A stretch of 64,000 nt of DNA from an uncultured Gemmatimonadota bacterium (GCA_964627425.1 CAZVIY010000008.1:2586-66585), one strand, 5' to 3'; positions 1,843-62,052 are shown, numbered from the stretch's first letter. Numbers and translations: made by a program. Notes: generated from the letters alone by a model not told the origin.

Positions 1843-1869
1843 GCCCACCGAGTTGACGGAGAGTTGACC

Positions 1870-3417: not shown

Positions 3418-3449
3418 CCTCGCGAGCCTTTCACGTCGAGGAGTCCTCC

Positions 3450-4970: not shown

Positions 4971-5085
4971 GACCGCCGGAGCCGGTGACGCGGCGACTCC
5001 CCCCGTCTGGCGTCAGCCGCTGGCGTAAAGGTATGTTCGCCCCCGTCGCGCGCACGACGTCTCCCTCCCGGGCCCCGGAGGCCAC

Positions 5086-8000
5086 ATGGAACCACTTCGC
5101 CGGCTCCAGACGGCCCTCGAGTCACTCGACCGGGGGCAGGTCTTCCGGCTGGCGTCCCTGACCGGCCTCTTCTTCCTCATCATCTGCGCGGTGGGCATCC
5201 TCCGGCCCATCAAGAACGCCCTGGCACTGGAGGGGCTCGCCGAAGGTCAGTTCTACCGGGTCTACCTGGTGAGCGCCGGCGTGGTGCTCTTCGTGCCCCT
5301 GTTCAACCGGCTCGCCGACCGGATCCCCTGGCGCCGGCTCCTGCCGCTCACCGCGATCTTCTTCGCCGTCCTGCTGCTGGGGTTCCGCGCCCGGTACGAC
5401 GCGGGGAGCGCGGCCTTCGGACTGCTCTTCTACGGATGGTACGACCTGATCGCCGCCGTCCTGGTCACCCAGTTCTTCATGGCCACCCAGCTGGTGTTCG
5501 ACGCCCGGGAGGCGAAGAAGTTCTATCCGGTGGTCATCGCCGGGGGCTCGCTGGGCGCCACCCTCGGCGGCGCCGTCACCGGCTTCACCGCCGAACGGGT
5601 GGGGCTGCCGAACCTCATGCTGGTGGCGGCGGTCCTGATCGTGGCCTTCGCCGTCATCCTGCCGCTCCTGTGGCGGGAGGAGCCGCCCGTGGCCGAGGGG
5701 ATCGAGGTCCTCGGCTCCGAGGACGAGCGGAGCTTTCCGGGGCTCCGGGAGCTCGCCCGGGTGTTCGGGAACCGTCAGGTCCGCCTCATCACCTTCGCCG
5801 TGCTCCTCACGGTGATGATCAAGCAACTCGTGGACTACCAGTTCAACACGATCACCGAACAGGTCTACGTGACCGCCGGCGGGATCAGCGAGTTCCAGGG
5901 CTGGTTCAACGCCGCCACCCAGTGGCTCCCCCTGCTGGTGCTCGGGGCCCTCGGCCCGGTCCTGCGCCGGTGGGGCGTGGGCGTGGTGCTCTTCATGTTC
6001 CCCGTCTTCATGGTGCTGGCCAACGTCGGTCTGGCGGCCACCTGGTCCCTGGCGGCGGCGGTGGTGGCCAAGGGCGGGGACACGGGCATACGCTACGCGG
6101 CCGAGCGCACCTCCCGGGAGATCCTCTACGTGCCCATCCCCGAGGACCTCAAGCTCCGGGCGAAGGGCTGGATCGACGTGGCCGTGGAGAAGGGCCTGGG
6201 GAAGGCCCTCTCGGCCTTCGCCATCTTCGGCCTCCTCCAGGTCATCGATTTCCGGCAGGTGGGCTGGGTGGCCGCGGGCCTCGCCGCCGGGGCCGTCGCT
6301 CTCTCCCGGATGCTCCGTGCGGAATACGTGGAGAGCCTGGCCAGCTCCCTGGAGACCGGAGTGGCGAGCGTCCGAGGTGTCTACGCCTCTCTCACCGGGG
6401 CCGAGGGGCTCCCGGCGCTCCGCCGCATCCTCCGCGAGGGCGACGTCGGCCGGACCGCCTTCGTCCTGGAGCTCCTGGGGAAGAGCGCGCCCGAGGACCG
6501 CCGTGCGCTGCGCGAGGAGGTGACGGAGCTCCTGTCCCACCCGGAACCCTCGATCCGACGCAAAGCGCTGGAGCTCCTGGCCGCCGAGCCGGACAACCTG
6601 GAGGAGAGTGCACTCGCTCCCCTCCTCCGGGACGAGGAGGACTCGGTCCGCGAGGCCGCCGTGGTGGCGCTGGCCACCCTCGTCCCGGACCGCGAGCTCC
6701 CGGGCCGGCTCCGCGAGCTCCTGGAAGACCACGACCCCCGCGTCCGCCGTGCCCTCCTCTCCCGACTCGCCCGGGGGCGGCTGCCCGTCCATCCCGACGC
6801 GGTGCTCGGCGACGACTACCTCCGGGAGCTCGATCCCGGGGCGGACGCCCCCCCGGAGGCCCGGCTGGAGTCGGCCCTGGCGGCGGGCGCCCTGACCCAC
6901 GAGCCAGCCGAGGCGCGCCGGAGGCTGTCGGAGCTCATGGAGGACCCCGATCCCCGAGTGGCGGCGGCGGCGCTGCGGAGCGCCGGCTGGCTGGGCGACC
7001 CGGAGCTGGATCGGAGGATCGTGGCGGCCCTGGCTCGCCCACGAGCGCGAGCGGCCGCCGCCGACGCCCTGGTGGACCGCGGGCGGGAGGTGCTGGGGCT
7101 CCTGTCCAGCCGGCTGGCCGACGTGGGCGAGGATCCCGCCGTCCGGCGGCACCTCCCTTCGGTCATGGCCCGGATCCCGTCGCAGGAGACCGTGGACGCG
7201 CTCCTCGCCTCCTACGCCGCGCCCGAGACCGACCAGCTCCTGGACTACCGGACGCTCAAGGCGCTCAACAAGCTCCGGGACCGGCGGGCGGAGGACTACC
7301 GGTTCCCTCGGGAGATCGTGGTCGAGGTCCTGGACCGGGAGGTGGGGGCCTACCGCGAGTACGGCCGGGCGGAACGAGCACTGGAGGAGGTCGCCTCCGG
7401 GGGCGAAGGCACGCGTCTGCTGCACCGCTCCGTCGGGGAGGCCCGGGCGAAGCGGAGGGAATCGGCCTTCCGCTGCCTGGGGCTGATCCTCCCTCCCCGC
7501 GACGTCTACCGCTGTTTCCTCGCCGTGACCCGGGGAGACCGGAAGGCGCGGGCCAACGCCCTGGAGTGGGTGGAATACGAGGGCGACCGCGATCTCTACC
7601 GACGGCTCCGCCCCGTCCTGGAGGATGGCCGGGGGCGAGCCCCCGGCGGCGAGGGCGATTCCCTGGAGCACCTCCTCCGGCTGGCCTGGGACAAGGACCG
7701 CTGGATCGCCCGGTGCGCCCTCTGGTCCATGGGGGAGCTCGTCCCCGACCGCACGGACGACGTCCTGGATGACTTTCGGAACCCCGACCCCCATCTTGAA
7801 AAGCTGGCCGACCGGCTCCGACGAGGGGCCTGGGGACCGGCCGCATCCCGAAGCGAGGGAGAGAGCTCCATGGAGACCATCGAGAAGGTGTTCCTCCTCA
7901 AGGACGTGGACGTCCTGGCGGGCGCGGACGCCTCGCACCTGGCCCTGGTGGCCGAGCTCGCCGAGGAGGTGAGGGCCGAGGAGGAGGCGCGGCTCCTGCA

Positions 8001-8283
8001 GCGCGGGCGTCCTTCCTCCGCCATGTACGTGCTGCTCGACGGCGCGGTGGAGCTGGAGGGCGAGTCGCAGGAGCTCCGCCTGGACCGGCGGGGCGACGCC
8101 TTCGGCACATGGGCCCTGATCGACGCGGAGCCCAGCCTGGTGGACGCCCGCGCCGCCGAGGTCACCCGGCTCCTCCGGGTCCGCCGCGCCCGCTTCGAGG
8201 ACCTCCTGGCCGACAACCCGGAGCTGGCGCTGGACCTCCTGAGCGGGCTCTCCCGACGTGTGCGCCGGGTCCTGACGGGATGA
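5086..8283 (+). CDS. Multidomain membrane protein: N-terminal MFS/TLC(Npt1)-like transporter domain, HEAT-repeat region, C-terminal cyclic-nucleotide-binding domain
   Basis: 1065-aa ORF. About 400 aa of multi-TM N-terminus (LRPIKNALAL..., typical of ATP/ADP-translocase-like MFS). Repeated DPxVRxAA HEAT-like units (DSVREAAVVALA, DPRVRRALLSRL, DPRVAAAALRSAG). C-terminal cNMP-binding beta-roll (AMYVLLDGAVELEG...GDAFGTWALID). Confidence 0.8.
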   Translation: MEPLRRLQTALESLDRGQVFRLASLTGLFFLIICAVGILRPIKNALALEGLAEGQFYRVYLVSAGVVLFVPLFNRLADRIPWRRLLPLTAIFFAVLLLGFRARYDAGSAAFGLLFYGWYDLIAAVLVTQFFMATQLVFDAREAKKFYPVVIAGGSLGATLGGAVTGFTAERVGLPNLMLVAAVLIVAFAVILPLLWREEPPVAEGIEVLGSEDERSFPGLRELARVFGNRQVRLITFAVLLTVMIKQLVDYQFNTITEQVYVTAGGISEFQGWFNAATQWLPLLVLGALGPVLRRWGVGVVLFMFPVFMVLANVGLAATWSLAAAVVAKGGDTGIRYAAERTSREILYVPIPEDLKLRAKGWIDVAVEKGLGKALSAFAIFGLLQVIDFRQVGWVAAGLAAGAVALSRMLRAEYVESLASSLETGVASVRGVYASLTGAEGLPALRRILREGDVGRTAFVLELLGKSAPEDRRALREEVTELLSHPEPSIRRKALELLAAEPDNLEESALAPLLRDEEDSVREAAVVALATLVPDRELPGRLRELLEDHDPRVRRALLSRLARGRLPVHPDAVLGDDYLRELDPGADAPPEARLESALAAGALTHEPAEARRRLSELMEDPDPRVAAAALRSAGWLGDPELDRRIVAALARPRARAAAADALVDRGREVLGLLSSRLADVGEDPAVRRHLPSVMARIPSQETVDALLASYAAPETDQLLDYRTLKALNKLRDRRAEDYRFPREIVVEVLDREVGAYREYGRAERALEEVASGGEGTRLLHRSVGEARAKRRESAFRCLGLILPPRDVYRCFLAVTRGDRKARANALEWVEYEGDRDLYRRLRPVLEDGRGRAPGGEGDSLEHLLRLAWDKDRWIARCALWSMGELVPDRTDDVLDDFRNPDPHLEKLADRLRRGAWGPAASRSEGESSMETIEKVFLLKDVDVLAGADASHLALVAELAEEVRAEEEARLLQRGRPSSAMYVLLDGAVELEGESQELRLDRRGDAFGTWALIDAEPSLVDARAAEVTRLLRVRRARFEDLLADNPELALDLLSGLSRRVRRVLTG

Positions 8284-8313
8284 CGGGGCCGAGGCCATGA
8301 CGTCTCCGAGGCC

Positions 8314-8796
8314 ATGACGTCGCCGGAGGAGCGCCCCACGGTGGGAATCGTCGACGACGAGGAGATGGTCGTCACCTCGCTGGAGAGCTTCCTCCAGCTC
8401 GAGACCGACTACCGGATCATCGGCAGCACCTCCCCCGCCGAGGCCCTCGAGCGGCTCGGCGAGGCGCCGCCCAACGTGGTGGTGGCCGACTTCCTCATGC
8501 CCGCCATGGACGGAATCCAGTTCCTGTCCGAGGTCAAGGACCGCTTCCCCACCGCCACCCGCATCCTCCTCACCGGCTACGCCGACAAGCAGAACGCCAT
8601 CCGGGCCATCAACGAGGTGGGCATCTACCAGTACATGGAGAAGCCCTGGGACAACGAGCAGATCCGCCTCGCCATCCGGAACGGCGTGGAGCGGTCCCGC
8701 CTGCTCCGGGACCTGCAGCAGCATATCACCCGACTCGAGGCGGCGAACGAGGAGGTCTCGGAGCTGCGGGAGCGGATGCTCCGGGCCTTTCTGTGA
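8314..8796 (+). CDS. Stand-alone response regulator receiver protein with C-terminal coiled coil
   Basis: VGIVDDEEMV...VVVADFLMPAMDGIQFL...ILLTGYAD...KPW is a CheY-like receiver signature (DD, phospho-accepting D, T, K). No output domain. Confidence 0.9.
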   Translation: MTSPEERPTVGIVDDEEMVVTSLESFLQLETDYRIIGSTSPAEALERLGEAPPNVVVADFLMPAMDGIQFLSEVKDRFPTATRILLTGYADKQNAIRAINEVGIYQYMEKPWDNEQIRLAIRNGVERSRLLRDLQQHITRLEAANEEVSELRERMLRAFL

Positions 8797-9842
8797 ACGC
8801 CGATACGGCGGGTGCGATCCGATCCGCCGGGGCGGGCGTGCTCCTCGGCGGCGGGCTGGGACTGGCGCTCGTGGGAGGGATCGGCCCCGCGGTGCCGGCG
8901 GTGGGGCTGACCGTGGCCGCCGCCGGGGCCGTGTGGCTGGGCGTCGAGTGGTGGAGGGCCCGGCGGGAGGCCCGGGCGCTGCGGCAGGTGGCCCGGGGGC
9001 TCCGGTCCCGGCTGGAGAAGCTGGAATCGTCTCGCGACGAGCTGGAACACGACTTCGACGACCTCCGGGATCACCAGGCCGAGGTGGTGAATTCGGCCCG
9101 TCTGGCCACCCTGGGCTCGCTCACCGCGGGAATCGCCCACGAGCTGGACACCCCGCTGGGCTCCCTCCGCAGCAACCTGGACACCCTCCGGCGCTCGCTG
9201 AACCGGCTCCAGGATATCCTGGCCGACGAGCGGGTGGACGAGTCCGAGCTGGACGACGTCCGGCGGATCGTGCGGGCCGTGGACGGAATCATGGACACGA
9301 ACGAGCTGGCCGTGGACCGGCTGGTGGAGCTGGTGGGGAGCCTCCGGACCTTCGCCCGTCCCGATCGATCCGAGCGGGACCGGGTGGACCTCCACGAGGC
9401 CCTGGAGGAGACCCTCGCCCTCCTGCAGCACGAGCTCAGGGACGGCATCCGGGTGACGAAGGAGTTCGGCGACCTCCCCCGCGTGGAGTGCTATCCGGCG
9501 AAGCTGAACCAGGCCTTCATGAACCTGCTGGTGAACGCGTGCCACGCCATCGAGGACGAGGGCGAGATCGCGGTCCGCACCTCCGCGGCCGACGGCCGGG
9601 TCGAGATCCGGATCGAGGACACCGGCCACGGGATCTCACCGGAGCACCTGGAGCGGATCTTCGAGCCCGGATTCACCACCAAGGGCTCGCGGGTTGGGAT
9701 GGGCCTGGGTCTTCCCATCACCCGTCAGGTGGTGGAGGAGGAGCACCGGGGCGAGATCTCCGTGGAGAGCGAGCCCGGAGAGGGGACCCGGTTCACCCTC
9801 CGGCTCCCCGTGGAGCTCACGTCGTCGGGGTCCGGCGGATGA
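8793..9842 (+). CDS. Sensor histidine kinase (two N-terminal TM helices with no evident periplasmic loop)
   Basis: GTG start overlaps the upstream stop by 4 nt. H-box LTAGIAHELDTPLG, N-box NLLVNACHA, G-boxes DTGHGI and GMGLGL. Confidence 0.9.
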   Translation: MNADTAGAIRSAGAGVLLGGGLGLALVGGIGPAVPAVGLTVAAAGAVWLGVEWWRARREARALRQVARGLRSRLEKLESSRDELEHDFDDLRDHQAEVVNSARLATLGSLTAGIAHELDTPLGSLRSNLDTLRRSLNRLQDILADERVDESELDDVRRIVRAVDGIMDTNELAVDRLVELVGSLRTFARPDRSERDRVDLHEALEETLALLQHELRDGIRVTKEFGDLPRVECYPAKLNQAFMNLLVNACHAIEDEGEIAVRTSAADGRVEIRIEDTGHGISPEHLERIFEPGFTTKGSRVGMGLGLPITRQVVEEEHRGEISVESEPGEGTRFTLRLPVELTSSGSGG

Positions 9843-42195: not shown

Positions 42196-42240
42196 TGGGC
42201 GCTGCTGGATTCGAACCAGCGACCTCCTGCTTGTAAGGCA
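42196..42240. repeat. 45-bp direct repeat: displaced copy of the 3' part of tRNA-Val (att-like site)
   Basis: tgggcgctgctggattcgaaccagcgacctcctgcttgtaaggca is identical to 50192-50236. Flanks diverge immediately on both sides. Confidence 0.9.
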
Positions 42241-42574
42241 AGGAGAGAAGCCCCCCTAGATTGGCTTAAGGTCATACCGAAAAAGCGATTAGTCTGCAAT
42301 GTGCAGAATCGGCCAGGGGCCGAAATGAGGCGCTGCTGAGGCCCAACGTTAGCACCGGCGTTAACATCTGGCCGGGAGCTCATCAGGTAGGATCCAGGGG
42401 CTTCCCAAACCACTACTCCGAGACACGAGGCCAGGCCAATGAGGGAGTCAAGCCCACTCCGGAATCACGTTGTCCCGAACGAGCACCTAAGCGACCACAT
42501 TCCTTCAGCTGTATGCCAGTGCCAACCCGAGAGCGTAGCGCGACGAACAGTATCCTCGCAAGGTTCGTTCGACT

Positions 42575-43213
42575 TCACCTACTACCTGCACCAGATCTTA
42601 TTGCTAGACGATTCACAAGCGAAAGAGAGAGCCCAATACCTAACCCCGCACCGGTCGAAATTGCTAAGGTTGAGCTTGGCGCGGGTCCTGATCTGACGGT
42701 GACGCCAATAAGGATTGTCGCACAGCCGAACAAGCCGGTCAGGGCAGAAGAGACTCGGTAGAAGCGCTTCTTTAAAAGTTTCCCCACGCAATAAACAGTA
42801 GGCGCGCTCCCTAATAATACGCCTCCAGCAAATACTATTAGTGGTCGTGGTTCATCGGAAACGACAACATCGAAAAGTTGCTCGTCTATCGCGAGCTGTA
42901 TAAAAAAAACAGCGACTGCCCCGAAGCCAATAATATGAGCCAGATAATTATCTATTCGCGACCACCGATCCTCACGTCTGGCAGGATGATGATGACGCCA
43001 CTCAATGGCGAAGCGGAACCCAAAATAAACCACCAACGCAAGTAGTACGAGCGGTGCTGCATCCGGGCTCTGTAAAGAGAAAGGTAGGTTCGAACTTTGA
43101 AGTTCGACTCCTACTAGCTCCCACGCTAGGAGAAGTCCTGCAACGAGACCGTAAGATTTCCGCGCCTTCTGATAGCTCTCTGAGCGCGGCGGGGGAAGGT
43201 TTGTCTCAGGCAC
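42575..43213 (-). CDS. Hypothetical multi-pass membrane protein (island)
   Basis: 212-aa ORF. GTG start preceded by GGAGGAG. About 5-6 hydrophobic helices (LVAGLLLAWELVGV, LVLLALVVYFGF, IIGFGAVAVFFIQLAI, LIVFAGGVLLG, LFGCATILIGV). Confidence 0.65.
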   Translation of the reverse strand: MPETNLPPPRSESYQKARKSYGLVAGLLLAWELVGVELQSSNLPFSLQSPDAAPLVLLALVVYFGFRFAIEWRHHHPARREDRWSRIDNYLAHIIGFGAVAVFFIQLAIDEQLFDVVVSDEPRPLIVFAGGVLLGSAPTVYCVGKLLKKRFYRVSSALTGLFGCATILIGVTVRSGPAPSSTLAISTGAGLGIGLSLSLVNRLAIRSGAGSR

Positions 43214-43693
43214 GCCTGCTCCTCCAGTAGGCTATGATCGGCCTTCCTCCGAAACTTCGTCAGGATTCTATCTTAATCCATCCCGCTTTACTCATCTTAA
43301 CGTGACGCTGGGCACGCTAGCCAGACATTCGCAAACCGCCATCGCTCAGTTTCTATAGGCATATTTATCAAGCGGTTCAATCTCAAGCTAAAAGACCTAG
43401 CGTATTCCGGATATCCGGCGGCCACGCGCTCAGAATGCGGGTCAGTGCCAGTCTCACTCGCCCGCTGGGTCATAGCGTTGATGTTATACCAGATGCCGGG
43501 TTTTTCGCGGACCGGTTCCGAATAGCATTAGGTCAATAGCGGGCCGATTCAGAGGGCTTTTTACTGAAGATGGCCGGAGTTTTACTATATGCTTGAGGTC
43601 TTGCGCTTAAAGTCCACGTGCGTGGAGAGAACAGGGAATAAGTTGTTGTCCGGATCCCCGCCGCATACATCCGATCGGGAGGGAGGGAAGCGA

Positions 43694-44260
43694 GTGTCTG
43701 AGTTCTTCGAAGGCCTAGCAGGTTTTGTGTCTGGACTCTCCGCGAGGGGATGGGTCACGCTCGTGGCTCTGGTCGTCCTCGCAGGAGTCGTATTTTTCGG
43801 TGTACGAGCCTACTCTGGTGGCTTCACGTATGATCGAATAGAACGAGAAATTGACCTGCTATCGGAACTTCAAGAGATACGACGTGACACAGTGATGAGG
43901 CGAGACACGGGTCTAGTAAGAGTTTACCAAGGAATCCGTACAAAACTAGATTCAACTGTCCGTCGAGATCGTGGTTTAAGCCTACCCACCATCTCAGTCG
44001 GTCCCCGCTTCTGGCAACTGGTAGTAGCATTCATTCCCTGGATTCTCTTGGCGCTAGCATTCTGGAGAATTGAGGCATTTCATCCAAAAGAGGGTGATCT
44101 CGTTTCTGCAGTCACCGGTACTCTCTTTGTCGGATTCCTGTTTGCACTCGTCGGAAGCTTACTTTTCCCAGATTGGCCCGCCTGGGTGCGATACCTTCTG
44201 TATCCGATCGGAGGGACGATTCTGATTATGATCGTCCTCGCAAAGAAAGGAGGATCGTAA
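43694..44260 (+). CDS. Hypothetical membrane protein (island)
   Basis: Internal GTG at 43694 sits 6 nt after GGGAGGGAGGG. The ORF-track start 43589 has no RBS. TM helices WVTLVALVVLAGVVFFGV, LVVAFIPWILLALAFW, VTGTLFVGFLFALVGSLLF, LLYPIGGTILIMIVLA. Confidence 0.65.
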   Translation: MSEFFEGLAGFVSGLSARGWVTLVALVVLAGVVFFGVRAYSGGFTYDRIEREIDLLSELQEIRRDTVMRRDTGLVRVYQGIRTKLDSTVRRDRGLSLPTISVGPRFWQLVVAFIPWILLALAFWRIEAFHPKEGDLVSAVTGTLFVGFLFALVGSLLFPDWPAWVRYLLYPIGGTILIMIVLAKKGGS

Positions 44261-44510
44261 CTTCGGTCGGCCAGTTCATCCTTGCAGTTTGCAACCGCCT
44301 CCCTCCCCGGAAGGGTGGACTACGTAGAGGGGCGTATAATGCTACTCTCGGGCAGGAAGCAATCATTTCGCGCATCTATAAGAGGGCTTGCGACGCAGCC
44401 GCCGAGGACGGGCGCACCGAGGACGAGCTTCAGGCCACCGAGCGGACGGGCTCAAATGGAGGAGTCACCAAGACTGAGGTGGAGGTGCACCTGCGGGAGG
44501 CGCTCATATC

Positions 44511-44645
44511 ATGAACTGCTTCGCAGGGACCCGGGCCGAACGGGAGTGGCTGTCGGCGCTGCGGAGGATCGCCGATGCGCTGGAGCGGATTTCGCAGGTG
44601 TTAGAATCCCCACCTTCGGATAAGCCACCGAATGGAGAAGCTTAG
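44511..44645 (+). CDS. Possible 44-aa small protein (island)
   Basis: Manual translation: MNCFAGTRAEREWLSALRRIADALERISQVLESPPSDKPPNGEA*. GGGAGG lies about 10 nt upstream. Balanced helical composition. Below the ORF-track length cutoff. Confidence 0.3.
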   Translation: MNCFAGTRAEREWLSALRRIADALERISQVLESPPSDKPPNGEA

Positions 44646-44647
44646 TT

Positions 44648-45250
44648 TCAACCTACCATCTGCTGAAGAAGTTCTCTCGCCCATTCAACTCCTGGCTTCG
44701 ACAGCCTGTAGTTTTTTGCCTTTGAGCCTGGCATCCCTTCAACCAAAAGATACGCTGTCTCCTTTAGGTAGGTAGAAAAATTGTGATCGAGGCAACCGTC
44801 CCGTTCGCACAACTCTCTGAGAGTCGCCGCTTGAGTGGTTTTCTGTCCGCGTGCCTTCTCGTTCAGATAGCAGCCAATTACCGAGAGGTCGATCATCCGG
44901 CCCTTCTTTCCCTCGGCTTCCAACTCCCCGAAAACCCGGATCGCGTTCTCGTCGAGTTCAACCACTCGCTCCAACTCAGCTAGGGTCACATCCGCGTCCT
45001 CGACTACGGCCCGTAGGCCAGACCCAATCGGCGCTCGCCGGGTTGATTCGTCATTTGGAGAATCCGATCCGTCCCGCTCCCGGGGGGCACTCGCCGGTTC
45101 TTCGGTCGCCGGCTTTACCCTCTGCGGAGACAGCATTTGCTGCAGTAGCTGCTCAACAATTACTGCTTGGAGATGTTCCGGGTGATTACTGGCGATCGAT
45201 ACAACTTCATCCACCAGTTCTCGCCACTCCTTGACCTTTTCCTCATCCAT
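44648..45250 (-). CDS. Hypothetical protein with helical N-terminus, acidic linker and C-terminal wHTH-like module (island)
   Basis: 200-aa ORF, 15 nt downstream of 45266-46048 on the same strand. C-terminus NFSTYLKETAYLLVEGMPGSKAKNYRLSKPGVEWAREL is winged-helix-like. Confidence 0.7.
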   Translation of the reverse strand: MDEEKVKEWRELVDEVVSIASNHPEHLQAVIVEQLLQQMLSPQRVKPATEEPASAPRERDGSDSPNDESTRRAPIGSGLRAVVEDADVTLAELERVVELDENAIRVFGELEAEGKKGRMIDLSVIGCYLNEKARGQKTTQAATLRELCERDGCLDHNFSTYLKETAYLLVEGMPGSKAKNYRLSKPGVEWARELLQQMVG

Positions 45251-45265
45251 GAATGGGCCTGTTCC

Positions 45266-46048
45266 CTATAGTTCCCAGTCGTGTTCGGCTAGCAGCTCCT
45301 CCGCTCCCTCTCTGCCCTTGGGTGAAAGGTGCACGAGGCCAGCGTCCGAATCGTACTCGATAAGCCTCTCGCCGTGAAGAGGTTCGAGGTTGCGGGTACG
45401 GTAATCATAGAATCGGGGAACCTCACACCACTCTTGTAATTGCCTGTCACCCACGGGATCAGGATAAGCATGATAGAGGAGGACTAGGGTCGCCTCGTCA
45501 TTGGTAAGGTACGTCTCCAAAACACGCTTCTTTCCAGCTACCTCCCACACCAAGGGGATTCGTTTCTCTACCAGTGCGTCCACTAGCGACTGAGCTTCCT
45601 CAATACTCGTCCCGTGAAAGATCCGGACGAGTTCCGCCATCACCCAGTTTGCGGTTCCTACAACTGCTTCCGCGTCCATGTGGTTGGGATCCACGTCACC
45701 ACCCACATGTCCTACGCTCCGCTTGTTGCGGACGGTATAGAGGAAGTCCAGCGCGTTTGGAATATGGAACCGGACTGAGTCTGGGAACGAACTCTTGTTT
45801 TCGAACCGGCGGAGGGCTTGACCGAAATCCCGAATGGAATCCGAGAGATCCATGTAGTCATTGTCTGGGTCGGTGTGCCATTCCAGGATTCGATATACAA
45901 CCTCCCCAAGCTTCCCACCATTCAGTTCGGAGGGCTCCCAACGCCGTTCTGCGTAGTTTCGTCGGATTCGGTTGAAGGCCCCCAGAAGTTCCTTCCGTAA
46001 CTCATCAGGGAGACTCGAAAGCCCTTCTTCCGGTTTGAGTATAGTCAT
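45266..46048 (-). CDS. Hypothetical protein with HEPN-like RNx5H motif and C-terminal wHTH-like module (island)
   Basis: 260-aa ORF. FLYTVRNKRSVGHVGGDVDPNHMD fits the HEPN Rx4-6H signature in a helical context. C-terminus ERLIEYDSDAGLVHLSPKGREGAEELL is winged-helix-like. Assignment made by eye only. Confidence 0.7.
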   Translation of the reverse strand: MTILKPEEGLSSLPDELRKELLGAFNRIRRNYAERRWEPSELNGGKLGEVVYRILEWHTDPDNDYMDLSDSIRDFGQALRRFENKSSFPDSVRFHIPNALDFLYTVRNKRSVGHVGGDVDPNHMDAEAVVGTANWVMAELVRIFHGTSIEEAQSLVDALVEKRIPLVWEVAGKKRVLETYLTNDEATLVLLYHAYPDPVGDRQLQEWCEVPRFYDYRTRNLEPLHGERLIEYDSDAGLVHLSPKGREGAEELLAEHDWEL

Positions 46049-46131
46049 CGGCTCATTCGGAGGACTGGACTGTCGACTCGATTCATCAATACTATCTTAC
46101 GATGGTACACTCACAAAACTAGGGGGTCAAT

Positions 46132-46623
46132 TTGCCTAACGAGGACGATGATCAGGAGAAGGGGACGAAAAACTACAAGATATCAATCGACGGTCCAGGT
46201 GTTGAGATCTCAAAGGAGGTCTCAGGGGATACCTTCGCCACGGTAATCGCAGTGCTCTTTGGAAGCGGAGAGGGCGCGAGAATTCCCGGCTTTGCCGGCG
46301 CCGCAGATCCAACGGAATCTTCGGATCAGAGGACGTCGCGACCTAATCTGTCTCCTGCAGAGTTCCTCCAGCAGACGAATGCTTCTACCAATCGAGAACG
46401 AATCGCGGCTTTCGCTTGGTACGCGTCTGAGCATCTTGAGCAGGACGGCATCCTACAGGACGATCTACCTGATCTATTCCGTCGGGCCCATCAGAGCGTT
46501 CCCAAGAACATGCGTCGTGATGTTAGACAGGCTAAGCGAGATGGTCTCGTGGATGAACATCCCGAAGACTCTGATCAGCTCTACGTTACGCAGACCGGCC
46601 GGGAGACGCTCCGTTCGGAGTAA
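46132..46623 (+). CDS. Hypothetical protein with C-terminal wHTH-like module (island)
   Basis: 163-aa ORF. TTG start 5 nt after AGGGGG. Divergent from 46048. C-terminus NMRRDVRQAKRDGLVDEHPEDSDQLYVTQTGRETL parallels the C-termini of the two minus-strand genes. Confidence 0.65.
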   Translation: MPNEDDDQEKGTKNYKISIDGPGVEISKEVSGDTFATVIAVLFGSGEGARIPGFAGAADPTESSDQRTSRPNLSPAEFLQQTNASTNRERIAAFAWYASEHLEQDGILQDDLPDLFRRAHQSVPKNMRRDVRQAKRDGLVDEHPEDSDQLYVTQTGRETLRSE

Positions 46624-46703
46624 CTTCGAATTAGCGGAACCTATTGAGACGTCGGTGAGAGTCCGTCCCAAGTTGCTCCTGGACTCGAACCTGGGAGTAA
46701 TCC

Positions 46704-46886
46704 ATGGACGACGACACCCTGTTCCGCTGCCAGCTCGAACGTCACGGGAACGGCATCCGAGAATTGAAGGTCTTGGAGATCTGGTACGACTGGCCCGGGA
46801 CGGCTCGCCGGGAAGCCGAGGCCGTGGATGGAGGCTGGCAGGTGGTGGGCGTGTCGGCGGACTTCGGGGCTAGCAAGCCTTTCTAG
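46704..46886 (+). CDS. Hypothetical 60-aa protein (island)
   Basis: ATG 6 nt after GGGAG. MDDDTLFRCQLERHGNGIRELKVLEIWYDWPG... has protein-like composition. Confidence 0.5.
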   Translation: MDDDTLFRCQLERHGNGIRELKVLEIWYDWPGTARREAEAVDGGWQVVGVSADFGASKPF

Positions 46887-46980
46887 TTCAGCCAGTCATC
46901 TCGCCCGAACCGCTCTAACCTGTTAATCGTAGGAGACTGGGCGGATAAGATTCTGGCTGCTCCCGTACACTCGGAGGCGA

Positions 46981-47307
46981 ATGATGACCAACTTTCCCCA
47001 AATCAAGGCCGAGTTGGATCTTAGCGAGGCAGAGCGGGAGCTTTTGGAACAAGCTCATACTGGTAGCACAGGCGTCATAAACGAATCCCGAGTGCTGTCG
47101 GACATTTACCTTGCGCATCACCTTCGGTCTGCTACCGGATCGTTGGTCGGGGCCACAGATGGCCTTCAAGTAGCAATCAAGAAGTCGACGAAGAAGATCA
47201 TAGAAAGCAATGAAAATCTAGCCGAGTCGAACCGGCGGTACGCCCTCGGATTAAACATTCTCACGGGCGCGCTCGTGCTTGTCACCTTCGCTCAACTCAT
47301 TTTCTAG
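46981..47307 (+). CDS. Hypothetical tail-anchored membrane protein (island)
   Basis: GGAGG just upstream of tandem ATGs (46981/46984). Helical N-terminal part and a C-terminal TM helix LNILTGALVLVTFAQLIF. Confidence 0.6.
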   Translation: MMTNFPQIKAELDLSEAERELLEQAHTGSTGVINESRVLSDIYLAHHLRSATGSLVGATDGLQVAIKKSTKKIIESNENLAESNRRYALGLNILTGALVLVTFAQLIF

Positions 47308-47498
47308 TAAGCAGTTGTTGTAGCCCCCGCCGCCTACCGGCCCTCCTCGGTGGCCCGGCAGAGGCGTTCATCCACTTCCTCGTTCAGACTGCGGGCCTCC
47401 CACGGGTGTCCGGGGGTTTTCTCATACCCGGGGGGACGTAGATTAGTCTTGGCTCATCATGCGATGGGTCAAGATCTATCTACATCTGGAGGAAGACT

Positions 47499-47750
47499 AT
47501 GAGCTATCACACAGCAGTGGTGTGCCCCAACTGGGAGGCCGACCAAGACCACGTGGCCATCGGCGCCGGCGAACTGATGGACAATCTGCCCACATTCTGC
47601 GAGGGCTGTGGAACGGAACTCATCGCTGCCTGCCCCTCCTGCGGAGAAGCTCTCCGGGGAAGGCTTGAGGACGGTCCCATCACAACGAGACCCTTCCAGC
47701 CGAAGAGCCACTGCGGGGACTGCGGCGAAGCGCTCCCCTGGGCCGGGTAG
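47499..47750 (+). CDS. Zinc-ribbon protein with three CxxC pairs (DUF2321-like by recollection) (island)
   Basis: GGAGG 6 nt upstream of the ATG. FCEGCGTELIAACPSCGEALRG...HCGDCGEALPW. Confidence 0.65.
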   Translation: MSYHTAVVCPNWEADQDHVAIGAGELMDNLPTFCEGCGTELIAACPSCGEALRGRLEDGPITTRPFQPKSHCGDCGEALPWAG

Positions 47751-47764
47751 GGAATTGGGACAAC

Positions 47765-48052
47765 ATGAAGCTGAGCGACTTCATCCCCGTCCGGGGGATC
47801 TGGATGTACCCCTTTTGGTTTGGGGCATTCATCTTCGCGCTGATGCTTCTGTTCATCGGGTCTCTGCCCGATCCGGTCCGGAGGTGGACGTTGCCTTCTT
47901 TTGCGGTCTACCTCCTTGGGCTGGGCAACTTGATCTTTCTAAAGGAGCTCAAGCACCGGCGATACATTGCCGACCGTCGGCATGACAGGGATCTAGGGCC
48001 GACCGAATCGCTATCTGCATCGGAGAAAAACCTCCCCGACGGCTGGGTTTGA
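47765..48052 (+). CDS. Hypothetical 2-TM membrane protein (island)
   Basis: 95-aa ORF, 14 nt after the previous stop. TM helices WMYPFWFGAFIFALMLLFIG and LPSFAVYLLGLGNLIFL. Confidence 0.6.
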   Translation: MKLSDFIPVRGIWMYPFWFGAFIFALMLLFIGSLPDPVRRWTLPSFAVYLLGLGNLIFLKELKHRRYIADRRHDRDLGPTESLSASEKNLPDGWV

Positions 48053-48178
48053 AGCTTTTGGGTTCTCCAAGCGGTATGGCTGGTCCTCTTCGTGGCCTAC
48101 AACTTCGGCAAGGACGTTCTCTGATCGCAGGAACGGGCGTTGTAAAACTGGAATGTTAACCCATCGCCGCGCTGAATC

Positions 48179-48292
48179 TCAGCCGACCACGTCCCGGATG
48201 ACCTCGGCCACCCGGTCGGAAATCTGGTAGACCATCTCCCCGGCGTCCTGGTCCCAGCGCCGCTCGAAGGGGGCTCCTCCCCCTATTCTCAC
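48179..48292 (-). CDS. Possible 37-aa small ORF translationally coupled to 48289-48681 (island)
   Basis: GTGA overlap with the upstream stop. Manual translation: (V)RIGGGAPFERRWDQDAGEMVYQISDRVAEVIRDVVG*. Confidence 0.25.
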   Translation of the reverse strand: MRIGGGAPFERRWDQDAGEMVYQISDRVAEVIRDVVG

Positions 48293-48681
48293 CGGTGCTC
48301 CTGGAGCTTACGGATCTTCTTTTGGAGGTCCCGAATCTTTGCCTCAAGCTTGGCCTCCTTCTTCTCCTCCTGGAGGGCCTTCAGGGTGGTATCCATCCCC
48401 TTCCGAAGCTCGTTGTAGGCCTTCTCGCTCATCCGCCCCCCAATCAGTTCGGCCGTCGCCCAGGACAGGTACCGACGAACCTCTCCAGCCGTTTGCGGCG
48501 CGGGGAAGGGTGGCTCCGCCGGGGAGTCGTTCCGGGGGCTCCTGGAGCCACCCAGGGATCTCCCGTGAGACTTCTTCTCCTGGGCGTACGGAGACTCATC
48601 GTGCAGAAGGCAGAGGTCCTCGGACCCCTTCCAGACGTACCCGGAACAATTCTCCTCAGAGCAGGGGCGTGCCTTACCCAT
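48289..48681 (-). CDS. Hypothetical CCCH zinc-finger-like / coiled-coil protein (island)
   Basis: Internal ATG 48681 preceded by GGAGG. CSEENCSGYVWKGSEDLCLLH (Cx4C...Cx2H). C-terminal heptad-like KALQEEKKEAKLEAKIRDLQKKIRKLQE. Confidence 0.6.
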   Translation of the reverse strand: MGKARPCSEENCSGYVWKGSEDLCLLHDESPYAQEKKSHGRSLGGSRSPRNDSPAEPPFPAPQTAGEVRRYLSWATAELIGGRMSEKAYNELRKGMDTTLKALQEEKKEAKLEAKIRDLQKKIRKLQEHR

Positions 48682-48724
48682 CGTCGCCTCCGCCCGTGAC
48701 CACCATGCGCTCCCGGATTCGGTC

Positions 48725-49615
48725 CTAGCGGGACTTCTGGGGGTCCAGGAGGGTGGGGTCATCCGTCGGCAGGGACTCGGCCCAGTCAGCGAAGCCTTGG
48801 CGGTCGTCCTCAGTGCCGCGTACCGAAATCTCGGCTGGGCCTGCAGGGGGGAAGTCGGGCGTGCTCCTGGGCTCCATCGTTGCCATCGGGCCCGTCCACC
48901 GGCCACGGTCCTCAACCGTACGGATTACTCGCTCCAGCTGGTGCCGGTGGCTCTGGGCCCGCTCGGCAGCCAGTTCGTTGGCCACGGTCTGATGGTTGGC
49001 GTGGGCGAGAGCCACCGCCTCCTGGGCGACGGCCAACGGATGAGACTCGGGGAGGGACTCAAACCGCTCCTTCCGGATCCGGCGCGTCACCTCATCCGAG
49101 AGGGTCTGGGCAGTGGCACGGTCACCGGCGGTGACCGCCGTGACCACCTTCTCCATGAGTTCCTCATCCTCCATGCGGTCCAGCTGGGCTACCAGGAGGA
49201 GGAGGTGTTTGGAGTCCGAGATCGGCTCCTTAGGGAGGGTGGCCGGCCCGAACCGCTGGTTGACGGCCTCCACGAGGAGATCCGCCTTCTTCCGTGCTTG
49301 AGCGGTTAGGTTCCGTCGGTCCTCCTGGAAGTTCTCCTCGGCCTCAGGGCTCAGCTGGCCCGCCCGGGCGAAGCGCCGGATCTTCTGCTCATTCCGCCAG
49401 TCGGCCTCGGCCTGGCGAACCAGTTCCACCTTCAGATTGCCGAACCGCTTCCAGTGGGGGGCCGTCTCTAGCTCCCTTCGGGCGGCCTCTTCGTATCGCT
49501 GTCTGAGCGCGTCGAGTTGAGCGCGGGCGTCCTGGGGTGTCATCGGGGCTCCTGGGGGGGCTTCTGGGAGGGATTTTTCTGAAAAAATGTCGCCGGTGGG
49601 TTTGGGAATTTTCAC
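48725..49615 (-). CDS. Hypothetical all-helical protein (island)
   Basis: 296-aa ORF from GTG 49615. ATG 49543 (MTPQDARAQ...), preceded by AGGAG, is a more likely start. No recognisable motifs, and no tyrosine- or serine-recombinase signature. Confidence 0.6.
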   Translation of the reverse strand: MKIPKPTGDIFSEKSLPEAPPGAPMTPQDARAQLDALRQRYEEAARRELETAPHWKRFGNLKVELVRQAEADWRNEQKIRRFARAGQLSPEAEENFQEDRRNLTAQARKKADLLVEAVNQRFGPATLPKEPISDSKHLLLLVAQLDRMEDEELMEKVVTAVTAGDRATAQTLSDEVTRRIRKERFESLPESHPLAVAQEAVALAHANHQTVANELAAERAQSHRHQLERVIRTVEDRGRWTGPMATMEPRSTPDFPPAGPAEISVRGTEDDRQGFADWAESLPTDDPTLLDPQKSR

Positions 49616-49808
49616 CGGAATAGCGCGAGGGCCCGCCCTACCGCCCCACAGCCCGTTACCGGGGGGTGGGGTCTGGTTTCGAGGGGGGCCCCAACTGCCG
49701 CACCCGCCGATGTAGCAGGGGAGATGGCACGGTGGGCGGCTAAGGAGTAGCGAGGGTCAGAAGTACCGTGTCTGCCCTCATGATCTAAGATACCCGGCGG
49801 GTAGCTGA

Positions 49809-49857
49809 GGTGTGTTCAGGGCAAACACACCCGGCAGACGCCTGCTAAGGTAGCAGG
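49809..49857. other. Two adjacent perfect hairpins in the island arm next to the tRNA
   Basis: ggtgtgtt-cagggca-aacacacc (49809-49831) and cctgcta-agg-tagcagg (49841-49857). Confidence 0.5.
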
Positions 49858-49918
49858 AGTTTAACCGCCGACACCCCTTGTCATGCCTAAAGGTTGGGCA
49901 ACGGTGTTAACGCAAGCG

Positions 49919-49928
49919 AACGTTAACA
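49919..49928 (+). repeat. AACGTTAACA motif copy (also at 50148-50157; variants at 42345-42354 and 42357-42366)
   Basis: Exact 10-mer AACGTTAACA at 49919 and 50148. AACGTTAgCA at 42345. ggCGTTAACA at 42357. A further GTTAAC at 49906. All lie in the non-coding island ends. Confidence 0.55.
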
Positions 49929-50191
49929 CGCCTGTCAGGAGAAAACCGCCGCAGCCCATCGGTACTGGGGACGGGGTGGGGAGGAGAGCCCTACTCCTCT
50001 CTGAAGCACCGTTCTATCCCGTGACGGCCGAGGATCCAGATGCCCTTCCCTCCGCCCACACGGATCCCGGTGAGTTCTTCCGATTCATTATCCCGGCAAA
50101 CCCCGAAAGGCCGGCCAGGAAGGAGCCTATCGGTTACATCAACACTCAACGTTAACAGAACAGCGGGCCCCCTCAGGATCCCTATGAACAG

Positions 50192-50267
50192 TGGGCGCTG
50201 CTGGATTCGAACCAGCGACCTCCTGCTTGTAAGGCAGGCGCTCTCGACCAGGCTGAGCTAAGCGCCC
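50192..50267 (-). tRNA. tRNA-Val (anticodon TAC)
   Basis: The reverse complement GGGCGCTTAGCTCAGCCTGGTCGAGAGCGCCTGCCTTACAAGCAGGAGGTCGCTGGTTCGAATCCAGCAGCGCCCA folds as a cloverleaf. Acceptor GGGCGCT/AGCGCCC, anticodon arm CCTGC-CTTACAA-GCAGG, T-arm GCTGG-TTCGAAT-CCAGC. 76 nt; CCA not encoded. Confidence 0.9.
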
Positions 50268-59781: not shown

Positions 59782-60462
59782 CTACTGGACCTCGAACGTG
59801 ATGGGCTGCTGGACCCAGACCGCCGTGGTCTTGTCCCGGTTCTGAGCCGGCGTGAACTCCATCTGCGCAGCCACCTTCCGGGCCGCCTCGTCCAGGGCGG
59901 CGTAGCCGCTCCCCTCCTGGACCCGGGCCTGGGTGACCTCGCCCTGCTCGCTGACGAACACCCACAGGACCACGCGCCCGCCGATCCCCTGGTTCTTCAG
60001 GTTGCGGGGATAGAAGCGTTCCAGCGCCTGCTGGACCTGCCCGGGGTTCTGGAGCTTCGGCGGCACGTCGTAGGGAATGAACGACGGCCGGTCCGAGGCG
60101 TCCCCGCCCTTCGGGGGCGGCGGCAGGTTCTCCACCGGGTTCGACTCGAAGGTGGTGGGGGCGATGGTCACGTCCTCGCTGATGTCCGCCGCCGAGACCT
60201 TCGGGGTGGCCGGCCGCGCGATCTGCTGGGGCGGCGGCGGGATCTCCACCTGCGGCGGGAGCTCCACCGACTCCAGCTCGCTGGCCGCGCTGCCCATGTC
60301 CTCGGCCCGCAGCTGCGGGAAGAAGTTGAACAGGCAGAAGTGGACCACCACGGCGGCGATGAGGCCGCCCGCGAACCAGCTCGCGTAGCTGTCCTTGAAG
60401 CGGTCGTTGGCGGTCTCCTGCACCGCCGTGTTCGGATCGTTGTACGGATTCTCCGGGGTCAT
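59782..60462 (-). CDS. tonB: Energy transducer TonB
   Basis: N-terminal TM anchor, Pro-rich spacer (PPQVEIPPPPQQ), C-terminal TonB_C (GRVVLWVFVSEQGEVTQARVQEGSGYAALDEAA). Confidence 0.85.
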   Translation of the reverse strand: MTPENPYNDPNTAVQETANDRFKDSYASWFAGGLIAAVVVHFCLFNFFPQLRAEDMGSAASELESVELPPQVEIPPPPQQIARPATPKVSAADISEDVTIAPTTFESNPVENLPPPPKGGDASDRPSFIPYDVPPKLQNPGQVQQALERFYPRNLKNQGIGGRVVLWVFVSEQGEVTQARVQEGSGYAALDEAARKVAAQMEFTPAQNRDKTTAVWVQQPITFEVQ

Positions 60463-60475
60463 GGTCGTCCCCCCT

Positions 60476-60922
60476 CTACCGTCTGGGTTGCTGCACCCGC
60501 TGCTCCAGCCGGGTGGCGAAGGTCACGCGGACCGCCCCTGCCGCCTGGAGCTCCTTGGTGATGGCGTTGATGCGCTGGTAGGGGAGCTCACGGTCGGCCC
60601 GGACGGCCACCACGAGCTCGCGGTTGTCCGCGTAGATCGGTCGGACCACGTCCGCCACGTCGTCCACCGGGATCAGCTTGTCGTTGATCCAGATGTCGCC
60701 GTTCTGCTCCACCCACACGTGGAGGATGTCCTTGCGCTTGGCGTCGATCTTCTCCGTGGCCTCGGCCTCCGACCAGTCGATGTCCCGCGGCTTCTCCTTC
60801 CGGAACACCGTGGTGACCATGAAGAAGATCAGGAGCAGGAAGGCGATGTCGGCGAGCGAGGACGTGGGGATCTCGCTCTCCGAACCGGAACTCCGCTCGA
60901 AGCCTGAATCTCTCGCGGACAT
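60476..60922 (-). CDS. exbD: ExbD/TolR family biopolymer transport protein
   Basis: SSLADIAFLLLIFFMVTT TM helix plus a periplasmic domain typical of ExbD. Confidence 0.85.
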   Translation of the reverse strand: MSARDSGFERSSGSESEIPTSSLADIAFLLLIFFMVTTVFRKEKPRDIDWSEAEATEKIDAKRKDILHVWVEQNGDIWINDKLIPVDDVADVVRPIYADNRELVVAVRADRELPYQRINAITKELQAAGAVRVTFATRLEQRVQQPRR

Positions 60923-60923
60923 C

Positions 60924-61346
60924 CTATTCTCCCAGCATCTGCAGCGAGATCCTCTCGGCTCCCGCCTGCTTCACCTCGTCCAGCACCGCGATCATACGCC
61001 GATAGGCCGCTCCGGGATCCGTCTTCACGGCGGCGATGAGCTCGGGATTGGCCGCGAGCTCCTGCCGGAGGATCCCCTCCACCTGCCGCGGGGCCACGAC
61101 CTGCTCCTCCTCGCTCTCGCCCCGCCGGACCACCACCTGGCCGTTGGGCTGGACGATGAAGAAGATGATGTTCTGGGCCGAGATCTCCTGCTCCTCCTGG
61201 GCCTCGGGCAGCACGATGGGCAGGCCCTTCTCCTCGTTGAACACGGTGGTGGTGAGGAAGAAGATCAGCAGCAGGAAGGCGATGTCCGCCAGCGAGGCGG
61301 TGGGGATGTCGTCGTCGACGGTCGAGCTTCGCTCGATGATCGGCAT
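60924..61346 (-). CDS. exbD: ExbD/TolR family biopolymer transport protein
   Basis: ASLADIAFLLLIFFLTTT. Second ExbD paralog. Confidence 0.85.
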   Translation of the reverse strand: MPIIERSSTVDDDIPTASLADIAFLLLIFFLTTTVFNEEKGLPIVLPEAQEEQEISAQNIIFFIVQPNGQVVVRRGESEEEQVVAPRQVEGILRQELAANPELIAAVKTDPGAAYRRMIAVLDEVKQAGAERISLQMLGE

Positions 61347-61362
61347 GGTCTCGTGATCCTCT

Positions 61363-62052
61363 CTAGTTCGAGGGCGTGCCGGAGGTCGGCGCGGAGGTCG
61401 GCGCGGATCCGCCGCCGTGCTCCAGCTCGTAGACCAGGTCGAGCACCGCCTGGGTCCCCTCCTCCATCTCCTGGATCAGCATGTCCACCCGGGTGACGAA
61501 GAAGTTGTACGCCAGGCTCACCGGGATGGCGATGGCGAGCCCGCTGGCCGTGGTGATGAGGGCCACCTTGATCCCGCCGGCCACCAGGGACGGCTCCACC
61601 TGGCCGGCGGCCTCGATGGCGGCGAAGGCGGCGATCATCCCGATGACGGTCCCGAGGAAGCCCAGCATGGGCGCCACGTTGGCGATGGTCGCCAGCACCG
61701 GCAGGCCACGCTCCAGGAAGTCCAGCTCCAGCTTGCCCGTGGTGCTGATGGCCTTCTCCAGGTCCTGGCCCGTGTGCTCCTCCCGGAGGCGCAGGAGGCC
61801 GGACAGGAGGATGGCCGCCACGGGTCCGGGGGTGGTCTCGGCCACCTGGATCGCTTCCTCCAGGTTCCCCCGGCGGCTCAGCTCCTCGACCTCCTCCAGG
61901 AGGCCGGAGCTCTCCCTGTGGGCCACCCAGAGGGTCCACGCCTTGGCGAGGATGACCCCCAGGGCCAGCAGGGAACACAGGACGAGGGGATACATCATGA
62001 ACCCTCCGTCCTTGAAGAGCGTCAGGAGCTCGTAGTTCAGCTGACTCTGCAC
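61363..62052 (-). CDS. exbB: MotA/TolQ/ExbB proton channel protein
   Basis: Three TM helices. LATIANVAPMLGFLGTVIGMI signature. Confidence 0.85.
   Translation of the reverse strand: MQSQLNYELLTLFKDGGFMMYPLVLCSLLALGVILAKAWTLWVAHRESSGLLEEVEELSRRGNLEEAIQVAETTPGPVAAILLSGLLRLREEHTGQDLEKAISTTGKLELDFLERGLPVLATIANVAPMLGFLGTVIGMIAAFAAIEAAGQVEPSLVAGGIKVALITTASGLAIAIPVSLAYNFFVTRVDMLIQEMEEGTQAVLDLVYELEHGGGSAPTSAPTSGTPSN

Follow-up and report, generated by a model that had tools for sequence, protein, structure and literature searches.

In a window of 64,000 nucleotides (the whole stretch of DNA that was analysed; uncultured Gemmatimonadota bacterium, GCA_964627425.1, CAZVIY010000008.1:2586-66585), we found an inserted island of 7,951 bp at positions 42241-50191, which lies between a tRNA-Val(TAC) gene and a displaced copy of the last 45 nt of this gene. 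That this arrangement is the integration footprint of accessory DNA at tRNA-Val is well supported. Ten plausible open reading frames (ORFs; here called I1 to I10) are found in the island, and our searches recognised no gene for an integrase or another recombination enzyme among them. We think that the island is probably a stranded, non-autonomous mosaic which resembles a cis-mobilizable element (CIME) and which goes back to an insertion of the tyrosine-integrase type into tRNA-Val.

The intact tRNA-Val(TAC) gene is found on the minus strand at 50192-50267 (Rfam RF00005, 73.8 bits). It is the sole tRNA gene that ARAGORN calls in the window, with one extra base (50191-50267). The 3' part of the gene, that is, the 45 nt at 50192-50236 (minus strand) that begin at the third base in the 5' strand of the anticodon stem and end at the discriminator base, recurs at 42196-42240 (minus strand) with 45 of 45 positions identical. 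On the plus strand this 45-mer reads TGGGCGCTGCTGGATTCGAACCAGCGACCTCCTGCTTGTAAGGCA. It occurs exactly twice in the window, with a spacing of 7,996 bp; no further copy with up to three mismatches was seen in the window and none was seen in 100 shuffles. The distal copy has the same orientation as the tRNA-Val gene and is situated downstream of the tRNA 3' end by 7,996 bp, as expected for a displaced 3' fragment that marks the distal attachment (att) site. We then compared 60 nt on each side of the two copies and found 20/60 and 11/60 identical positions, which is chance level. Because the flanks agree at chance only, the 45-bp repeat is a sharply bounded block and not the better-kept part of a decayed duplicate gene. 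A preliminary description of the window, made from the sequence alone, had reported the tRNA gene and the perfect repeat with immediately diverging flanks, and both are as it said.

The same description had named a second, degraded tRNA gene as an observation that would speak against an insertion. Such a gene can be ruled out: the fragment has no D arm, ARAGORN makes no call there, and the identity breaks off abruptly without any graded decay. The Rfam tRNA model does score 35.1 bits on 42196-42255 (minus strand), above its gathering score of 29 and with the D arm missing, and this score is driven by the 45 perfect nucleotides. Given the above-gathering score, automated pipelines could label the fragment as a second tRNA gene. 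Furthermore, two islands in tandem, with an att site between them, were considered and rejected, as the island has no third, degenerate copy of the core (the best match is 23/45, again at chance).

Composition and gene content of the island

The island differs clearly from its host in composition. Its GC content is 57.4%, compared with 72.0% in the host, and in a windowed analysis the GC fraction is 0.52-0.58 over 42.0-48.0 kb, 0.64-0.67 over 48-50.2 kb and 0.69-0.76 elsewhere. The GC content at third codon positions (GC3) is 0.61-0.79 in the island ORFs and 0.84-0.98 in the host genes. The tetranucleotide usage of the island correlates with the host profile at 0.63, whereas eleven host windows as long as the island reach 0.93-0.97. 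All three breaks (GC, GC3 and tetranucleotides) fall at the repeats, so the lower-GC island of the preliminary description is borne out by both the windowed GC and the tetranucleotide check. The flanks are made of ordinary host genes with high GC3: to the left lies a response-regulator/PAS/GGDEF/EAL gene, to the right a dodecin gene and a peptidase-MA gene.

Within the island we see a mosaic of two parts. The part next to the tRNA gene (about 48.18-50.19 kb) has 64% GC and the other part (42.24-48.18 kb) has 55% GC. The tetranucleotide correlations of the two sub-parts with the host profile are 0.60 and 0.56, compared with 0.81-0.94 for size-matched host controls.

Next, we asked what the island encodes. 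The ten ORFs are 83-296 aa long, and when compared with Pfam, PHROGs, PADLOC and NCBIfam they gave no integrase, serine recombinase, transposase, excisionase, primase/replicase or virion protein; in particular, none of them matches a structural PHROG. The only family match above a curated threshold is the DUF2321 zinc ribbon in the 83-aa protein I7, in line with the earlier statement that the region encodes only small proteins of unknown function. The gaps between the ORFs are too short for an integrase, because the largest of them measures 576 bp. A six-frame Pfam scan of six gaps (both terminal arms and every gap above 230 bp) gave no match. As positive controls, two integrases from related loci were included in one such search and were detected at 1e-9 and 1e-17. 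When two integrases from a Longimicrobiales locus (L035) were compared with the whole 64 kb using tblastn, nothing was found below E = 0.8. Since the island has neither an integrase nor another recombination gene, it is not self-mobile as it stands.

These results affect two of the earlier claims. The region had been described as a classic case of integration into a tRNA gene; the att-type footprint and the accessory nature of the DNA hold, given the configuration of the repeats, the compositional breaks and the use of the same tRNA as a hot spot (see below), whereas the recombination gene that would complete the picture is missing. It had also been described as accessory DNA of the sort in which defence systems concentrate. 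Here again the accessory nature holds, but a search with PADLOC-DB 2.0 found no component of a known defence system, with just two sub-threshold matches at E = 0.012 and 0.026.

Both ends of the island are non-coding and without a Pfam match in six frames: the tRNA-proximal arm at 49616-50191 (576 bp) and the distal arm at 42241-42574. All four exact copies of the 8-mer CGTTAACA in the 64-kb window fall into these two arms, at 42359-42366 (plus strand), 49905-49912 (minus), 49921-49928 (plus) and 50150-50157 (plus). The first two tRNA-proximal copies form the inverted repeat GTGTTAACG-N8-CGTTAACAC, and a copy with one mismatch is present in the distal arm at 42347-42354. In dinucleotide-preserving shuffles of the arms, an 8-mer was seen four times in 45 of 2,000 cases, and it was also present in both arms in 6 of 2,000. 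From their layout, the CGTTAACA repeats are plausible candidates for arm-type or operator sites.

Relatives of the I10-I9 gene pair and of the attachment site

Two genes of the island have informative relatives, and both are located in the tRNA-proximal part on the minus strand. I10 (48725-49615, with a likely start that gives 48725-49543) encodes an all-helical protein of 272-296 aa, most likely 272. I9 (48289-48681) encodes a protein of 130 aa in which a basic linker joins an N-terminal Cys/His knuckle to a C-terminal coiled coil. A word-indexed protein search with I10 and I9 matched only the two proteins themselves. An exhaustive HMMER search with I10 gave 10 remote homologues, and in all six homologue contigs that could be read the I10 homologue is followed by a homologue of I9 that likewise has the Cys/His knuckle and the coiled coil. 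For the loci L044, L045, L046 and L047, the likeness between I9 and the neighbour of the I10 homologue was seen with tblastn and by alignment.

The surroundings of these pairs are of two kinds. In L045, the I10-like and I9-like genes are followed by the gene for the terminase large subunit (TerL; phrog_2, 1e-37), and in L047 by a 72-aa ORF and then by a TerL that is 47% identical to that of L045. On the other hand, L044 and L043 have the pair facing a phage-type primase and an HTH_17 gene, and the 9.2-kb contig L048 (Logan SRR26668061_214971, 1-9181) carries a PF00589 integrase, an HTH_17 gene, an archaeo-eukaryotic primase (AEP) and then the I10/I9 pair. Because the relatives sit together with TerL or with integrase, HTH_17 and primase genes, the I10-I9 pair belongs to the backbone of a phage or satellite. 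Judged by gene order, the I9 homologues occupy the usual position of the small terminase subunit, directly before TerL. We found no sequence or profile match between I9 and the TerS families in Pfam, PHROGs or the PDB sequences, and profile searches with I10 and I9 against the PDB sequences gave nothing but coiled-coil noise. The AlphaFold2 (AF2) model of I10 is an all-helical bundle with a predicted local distance difference test (pLDDT) score of 84.5; it matches no known fold and, in particular, no catalytic fold. I10 has no match among phages or in IMG/VR.

At the point where a TerL gene would be expected to start, there is a 37-aa ORF (48179-48292, minus strand; a Logan gene call) that overlaps the I9 stop codon. 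This region is likely the junction of the two parts of the mosaic, because the fine GC profile falls there from about 0.65 to about 0.56. No similarity to TerL could be detected downstream of I9 in the window, and a TerL gene may have been truncated after I9.

About 40 nt upstream of I10 we noted a C-rich motif of 17 nt, ACCCCACCCCCCGGTAA (49656-49672, minus strand). The I10 homologue in L043 has an identical motif upstream, and L047 and L044 share part of it.

We also asked where else the attachment block occurs. The exact 45-mer was found in 34 loci of a collection of species-representative genomes, almost all of them metagenome-assembled genomes (MAGs) of Longimicrobiales or other Gemmatimonadota, and because of this distribution we place the host in a Longimicrobiales-like clade of Gemmatimonadota. 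Most of the 34 matches are intact tRNA-Val genes. A PF00589 tyrosine integrase of 402-414 aa abuts tRNA-Val in L035 (in two copies), L010, L003 and L024, and remnants of such a gene are seen in L030 and L015. Copies of the fragment outside tRNA genes in L008, L015 and L023 lose their identity to the tRNA at nt 45-46, just as in our window. Because integrases abut the tRNA gene and the fragment copies end alike, tRNA-Val(TAC) is an integration hot spot in Longimicrobiales, with the 45-mer as its recurrent identity block.

Some details of these loci may be added. In L035 (2237-4859), the two integrases are 72% identical and are situated one on each side of tRNA-Val. In L008 and L015 (CBDCEQ010000003.1, at 2.54 Mb and 1.98 Mb), the extra 45-mers are 1.7-2.3 Mb away from the intact tRNA gene (0.23 Mb, L004). 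The same arm of the type CGTAA(C/G)TTCAA precedes both of them, on the side where L024, L035 and L030 have element DNA. They resemble attP-type copies more than displaced fragments.

Gene order around the island tells us little, as synteny with the 34 related MAG loci is near zero: just two genes of the right flank have a match, in L017 and L022, and the loci are too divergent to compare. The genome of the window is not among these loci, and the collection contains no near relative of the host. The 45-mer is absent from the viral contigs of IMG/VR, and a comparison of the island DNA with GenBank phages and PLSDB plasmids gave no match. An 8,007-bp Logan contig from SRR9010616 (SRR9010616_971899, L001) corresponds to window positions 42211-50217 at 100% identity. 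It starts 15 nt inside the left repeat and ends 26 nt inside the right repeat, and its termini overlap by 11 nt; the right end falls 4 nt short of a simple k=31 branch point. We considered this contig as evidence for a circle and rejected it: its ends lie inside the 45-bp repeats, as a k=31 graph would give, and do not distinguish the integrated from the circular form.

Origin and possible mobility of the island

How could the island have come about? We suppose that a circular foreign element had an attP site which included the same 45 nt as the 3' end of tRNA-Val(TAC), and that a tyrosine integrase, presumably of the class with crossover in the anticodon arm, recombined this site with the chromosomal tRNA-Val gene. 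The integration would have regenerated the tRNA gene at 50192-50267 and pushed its original 3' fragment to 42196-42240. The tRNA-proximal 2 kb (64% GC) may then be a fragment of a phage-type or satellite-type backbone, and the other 6 kb (55% GC) unrelated orphan cargo. With the genes for integrase, excisionase, replication and packaging gone, the element would be stranded, and it could move only if a matching recombinase acted in trans or if an incoming element integrated alongside it. To judge from the relatives, the integrase, excisionase, primase and TerL genes were probably lost rather than never carried.

The features on which this reading rests are known from other genomes. The Islander approach (Hudson, Lau & Williams 2015, PMC4383910) maps islands in tRNA genes (tDNAs) at single-nucleotide precision with the help of the downstream 3' fragment in the same orientation. 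As in the islands described there, a regenerated tRNA and a displaced fragment mark the ends in our window, the composition is foreign and the size of 8 kb is in the usual range. The block from the anticodon arm to the 3' end also agrees with the anticodon-centred attP class 'A' of that work. In contrast, the Islander criteria demand a tyrosine integrase gene (PF00589), and an island without one, such as ours, is filtered out and counted as inactive.

The closest likeness is to the CIMEs, which were defined in streptococci (PMC5704250). As in a CIME, both attL and attR are retained (here as two perfect 45-bp copies), the genes for integration and transfer are absent, and mobilisation is in principle possible only through the recombinase of another element that uses the same site. 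On the other hand, CIMEs were described in Firmicutes as decay products of integrative conjugative or mobilizable elements, whereas the backbone fragment in our window is related to phages or satellites, the host belongs to Gemmatimonadota and the island is known from sequence alone. With respect to an origin by decay, distant relatives of I10-I9 do occur together with an integrase and a primase (L048), and no traces of pseudogenes were detected in the window.

One could also compare the island with a defective prophage remnant, which shares with it a phage-related gene fragment at a tRNA attachment site and the lack of most functions. Unlike in such a remnant, just 2/10 genes have a link to phages, the other 6 kb differ in composition and lack phage homologues, and no pseudogene debris was detected in the window.

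Several observations weigh against a stranded mosaic that lost its genes. An element that still works in trans would be compatible as well with the perfect att copies and with an 8-mer that is repeated in both arms. There is no detectable remnant of a TerL or integrase pseudogene in the island, so that the element may have been without genes of this type from the start instead of losing them by deletion. Neither an empty-site pattern nor an attL-arm pattern matched any of the JGI metagenome contigs. Moreover, the collections that we searched gave no circular junction and no second copy of the island, which leaves an insertion inferred from only one genome, and the window comes from a metagenome-assembled contig.

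The main rival explanation takes up the first of these points. Maybe the island is an intact, non-autonomous element of the satellite type with working att arms and the I10-I9 pair, for which a helper phage or an L048-type sibling supplies the integrase and the terminase that excise, package and re-integrate it. Besides the two perfect att copies, the four CGTTAACA copies speak for it, as they are restricted to the arms and laid out as arm-type sites would be. The island is about as large as the 9.2-kb L048 contig with its integrase and the same gene pair, homologues of I10-I9 stand immediately before TerL in phage-like contigs, and the island was assembled as a contig of its own in SRR9010616. 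Some satellites carry their own TerS, and the pattern of I10-I9 before TerL resembles that. Also, like the satellites of the PICI, cfPICI and P4-like families, the island is within the range of 7-20 kb, has att repeats and lacks virion structural genes, and its gene pair has homologues that adjoin the terminase gene of phage-like contigs; among its relatives, L048 has the integrase/HTH_17/primase layout, and L044 and L043 have the primase and HTH_17.

However, an integrase is among the typical components of the P4-like, PICI, cfPICI and PLE satellites, usually with AlpA and a primase (PMC10085698, PMC13376191), and the island has no integrase, no AlpA/HTH_17 and no primase, nor does it match any satellite marker family. 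Neither its sequence nor a profile links I9 to any TerS family, and no helper was identified. The separate Logan contig has its ends explained by the k=31 graph, and the search for a second copy of the island gave none. We therefore consider a satellite that is moved in trans to be unlikely. A bolder version of the same idea, in which Gemmatimonadota have an undescribed class of integrase-less minimal phage satellites and the island is one of its working members, seems more doubtful still. Such satellites would keep the attP arms with putative CGTTAACA arm-type sites and the I10-I9 pair, they would obtain integrase, replication and terminase from a helper phage or from an L048-type sibling, and their orphan cargo, including the I4 family, would possibly be a new defence or regulatory module.

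It is very improbable that there was no insertion at all, whether the 45-mer is a second tRNA gene in decay or a duplication that is local or due to chance, or whether the assembler threaded the island into the host contig through the 45-bp repeat. What can be said for this is the above-gathering Rfam score of the fragment, the origin of the sequence from a MAG and the separate Logan contig with its ends inside the repeats. The abrupt change from full identity to chance, the missing D arm and the missing ARAGORN call argue against it. Furthermore, orientation and configuration are exactly those which integration predicts, and the pattern never appeared in shuffles. For an assembly chimera, both junctions would have to be false. 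NCBI has on record a 132-kb contig with identical island proteins, and a chimera, too, would presuppose an element with an attP for tRNA-Val.

Finally, it is hardly credible that one of the island proteins (I10, or the winged-helix proteins I3, I4 or I5) is an unrecognised recombinase and the element self-mobile: all ten proteins are without an assigned function, I10 is encoded 0.6 kb from the tRNA, at a place often taken by an integrase, and I4 combines a DNA-binding winged helix with a strictly conserved polar motif, but the I10 homologues co-occur with a PF00589 integrase (L048) and with TerL in phage-like contigs, the I10 bundle resembles no catalytic fold, most I4 homologues have ordinary chromosomal surroundings and none of the examined loci shows an att-like setting, and tyrosine integrases are the only enzymes known to target tDNAs (PMC4383910).

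The island is one more tRNA-borne genomic island and ordinary in kind. Integrase-less remnants at tRNA genes are common. Its value lies partly in the site, as it documents tRNA-Val(TAC) as a hot spot in the little-studied Longimicrobiales, with a block of 45-46 nt in the island and in three checked fragment copies from MAGs. Furthermore, the I10-I9 pair ties the island to small, undescribed elements with integrase, HTH_17 and primase and to TerL-bearing phage-like contigs, and these elements and contigs could form a satellite/helper system. We know of no described satellite from Gemmatimonadota. A relationship of this kind, possible between L048, L044 and L043 on one side and the TerL-bearing L045 and L047 on the other, would be an undescribed one in high-GC bacteria.

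Genes of the distal part

The distal part (42.24-48.18 kb) has eight ORFs and no phage homologues. I1 (42575-43213, minus strand, 212 aa) and I2 (43589-44260, plus strand, 223 aa) look like hydrophobic membrane proteins without a family match. I3 (44648-45250, minus strand, 200 aa) begins 15 nt downstream of I4, I5 (46132-46623, plus strand, 163 aa) is divergent from I4, and I6 (46981-47307, plus strand) encodes 108 aa. In L045, the genes for the I10-like protein, the I9-like protein and TerL have a homologue of I5 upstream (29% identity over 170 aa in tblastn, E = 3e-20).

I4 (45266-46048, minus strand) encodes a protein of 260 aa with a helical N-terminal domain and a C-terminal MarR-like winged helix. 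It is a member of a large uncharacterised family: 3,154 homologues with an identity of about 50% are spread over Bacteria and Archaea, including Woesearchaeota, Nitrososphaerota and Patescibacteria, and the family is nearly absent from IMG/VR. No match to this family was found in Pfam, NCBIfam, PADLOC, PHROGs or the PDB sequences. With more than 3,000 homologues and no Pfam model, the family may merit a study of its own. Its N-terminal domain shows the near-invariant motif RNKRxVGHVGGDxxPNHMDA. The AF2 model of I4 has a pLDDT of 91, and Foldseek matched the winged-helix part alone. The R-x6-H pattern in RNKRSVGH had suggested a HEPN domain; this was dropped as unproven, since Foldseek gave no support for it. 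Members of the family are also found at L036, 5001-5777, and L040, 5001-5774. In three other genomes, an uncharacterised ORF of 154-196 aa lies immediately upstream of the I4 homologue. I5 and I3 were tried as equivalents of this upstream partner and found no support, with no BLASTP similarity and an hhalign E = 0.3.

I7 (47499-47750, plus strand, 83 aa) is the zinc-ribbon N-terminal half of DUF2321 (Pfam, 1e-11; phrog_16447, 4e-10) and covers positions 2-80 of the 157 in the profile. I8 (47765-48052, plus strand, 95 aa), which starts 14 nt later in another frame, is hydrophobic and looks like a membrane protein. I7-I8 may be a split or variant DUF2321 gene.

Outside the island, the window has a second, shallower dip in GC content (0.66-0.67 over 60.0-61.5 kb). 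It corresponds to the ExbB-ExbD-ExbD-TonB operon of the host (59782-62052, minus strand), which has a GC3 of 0.93-0.97 and is not foreign.

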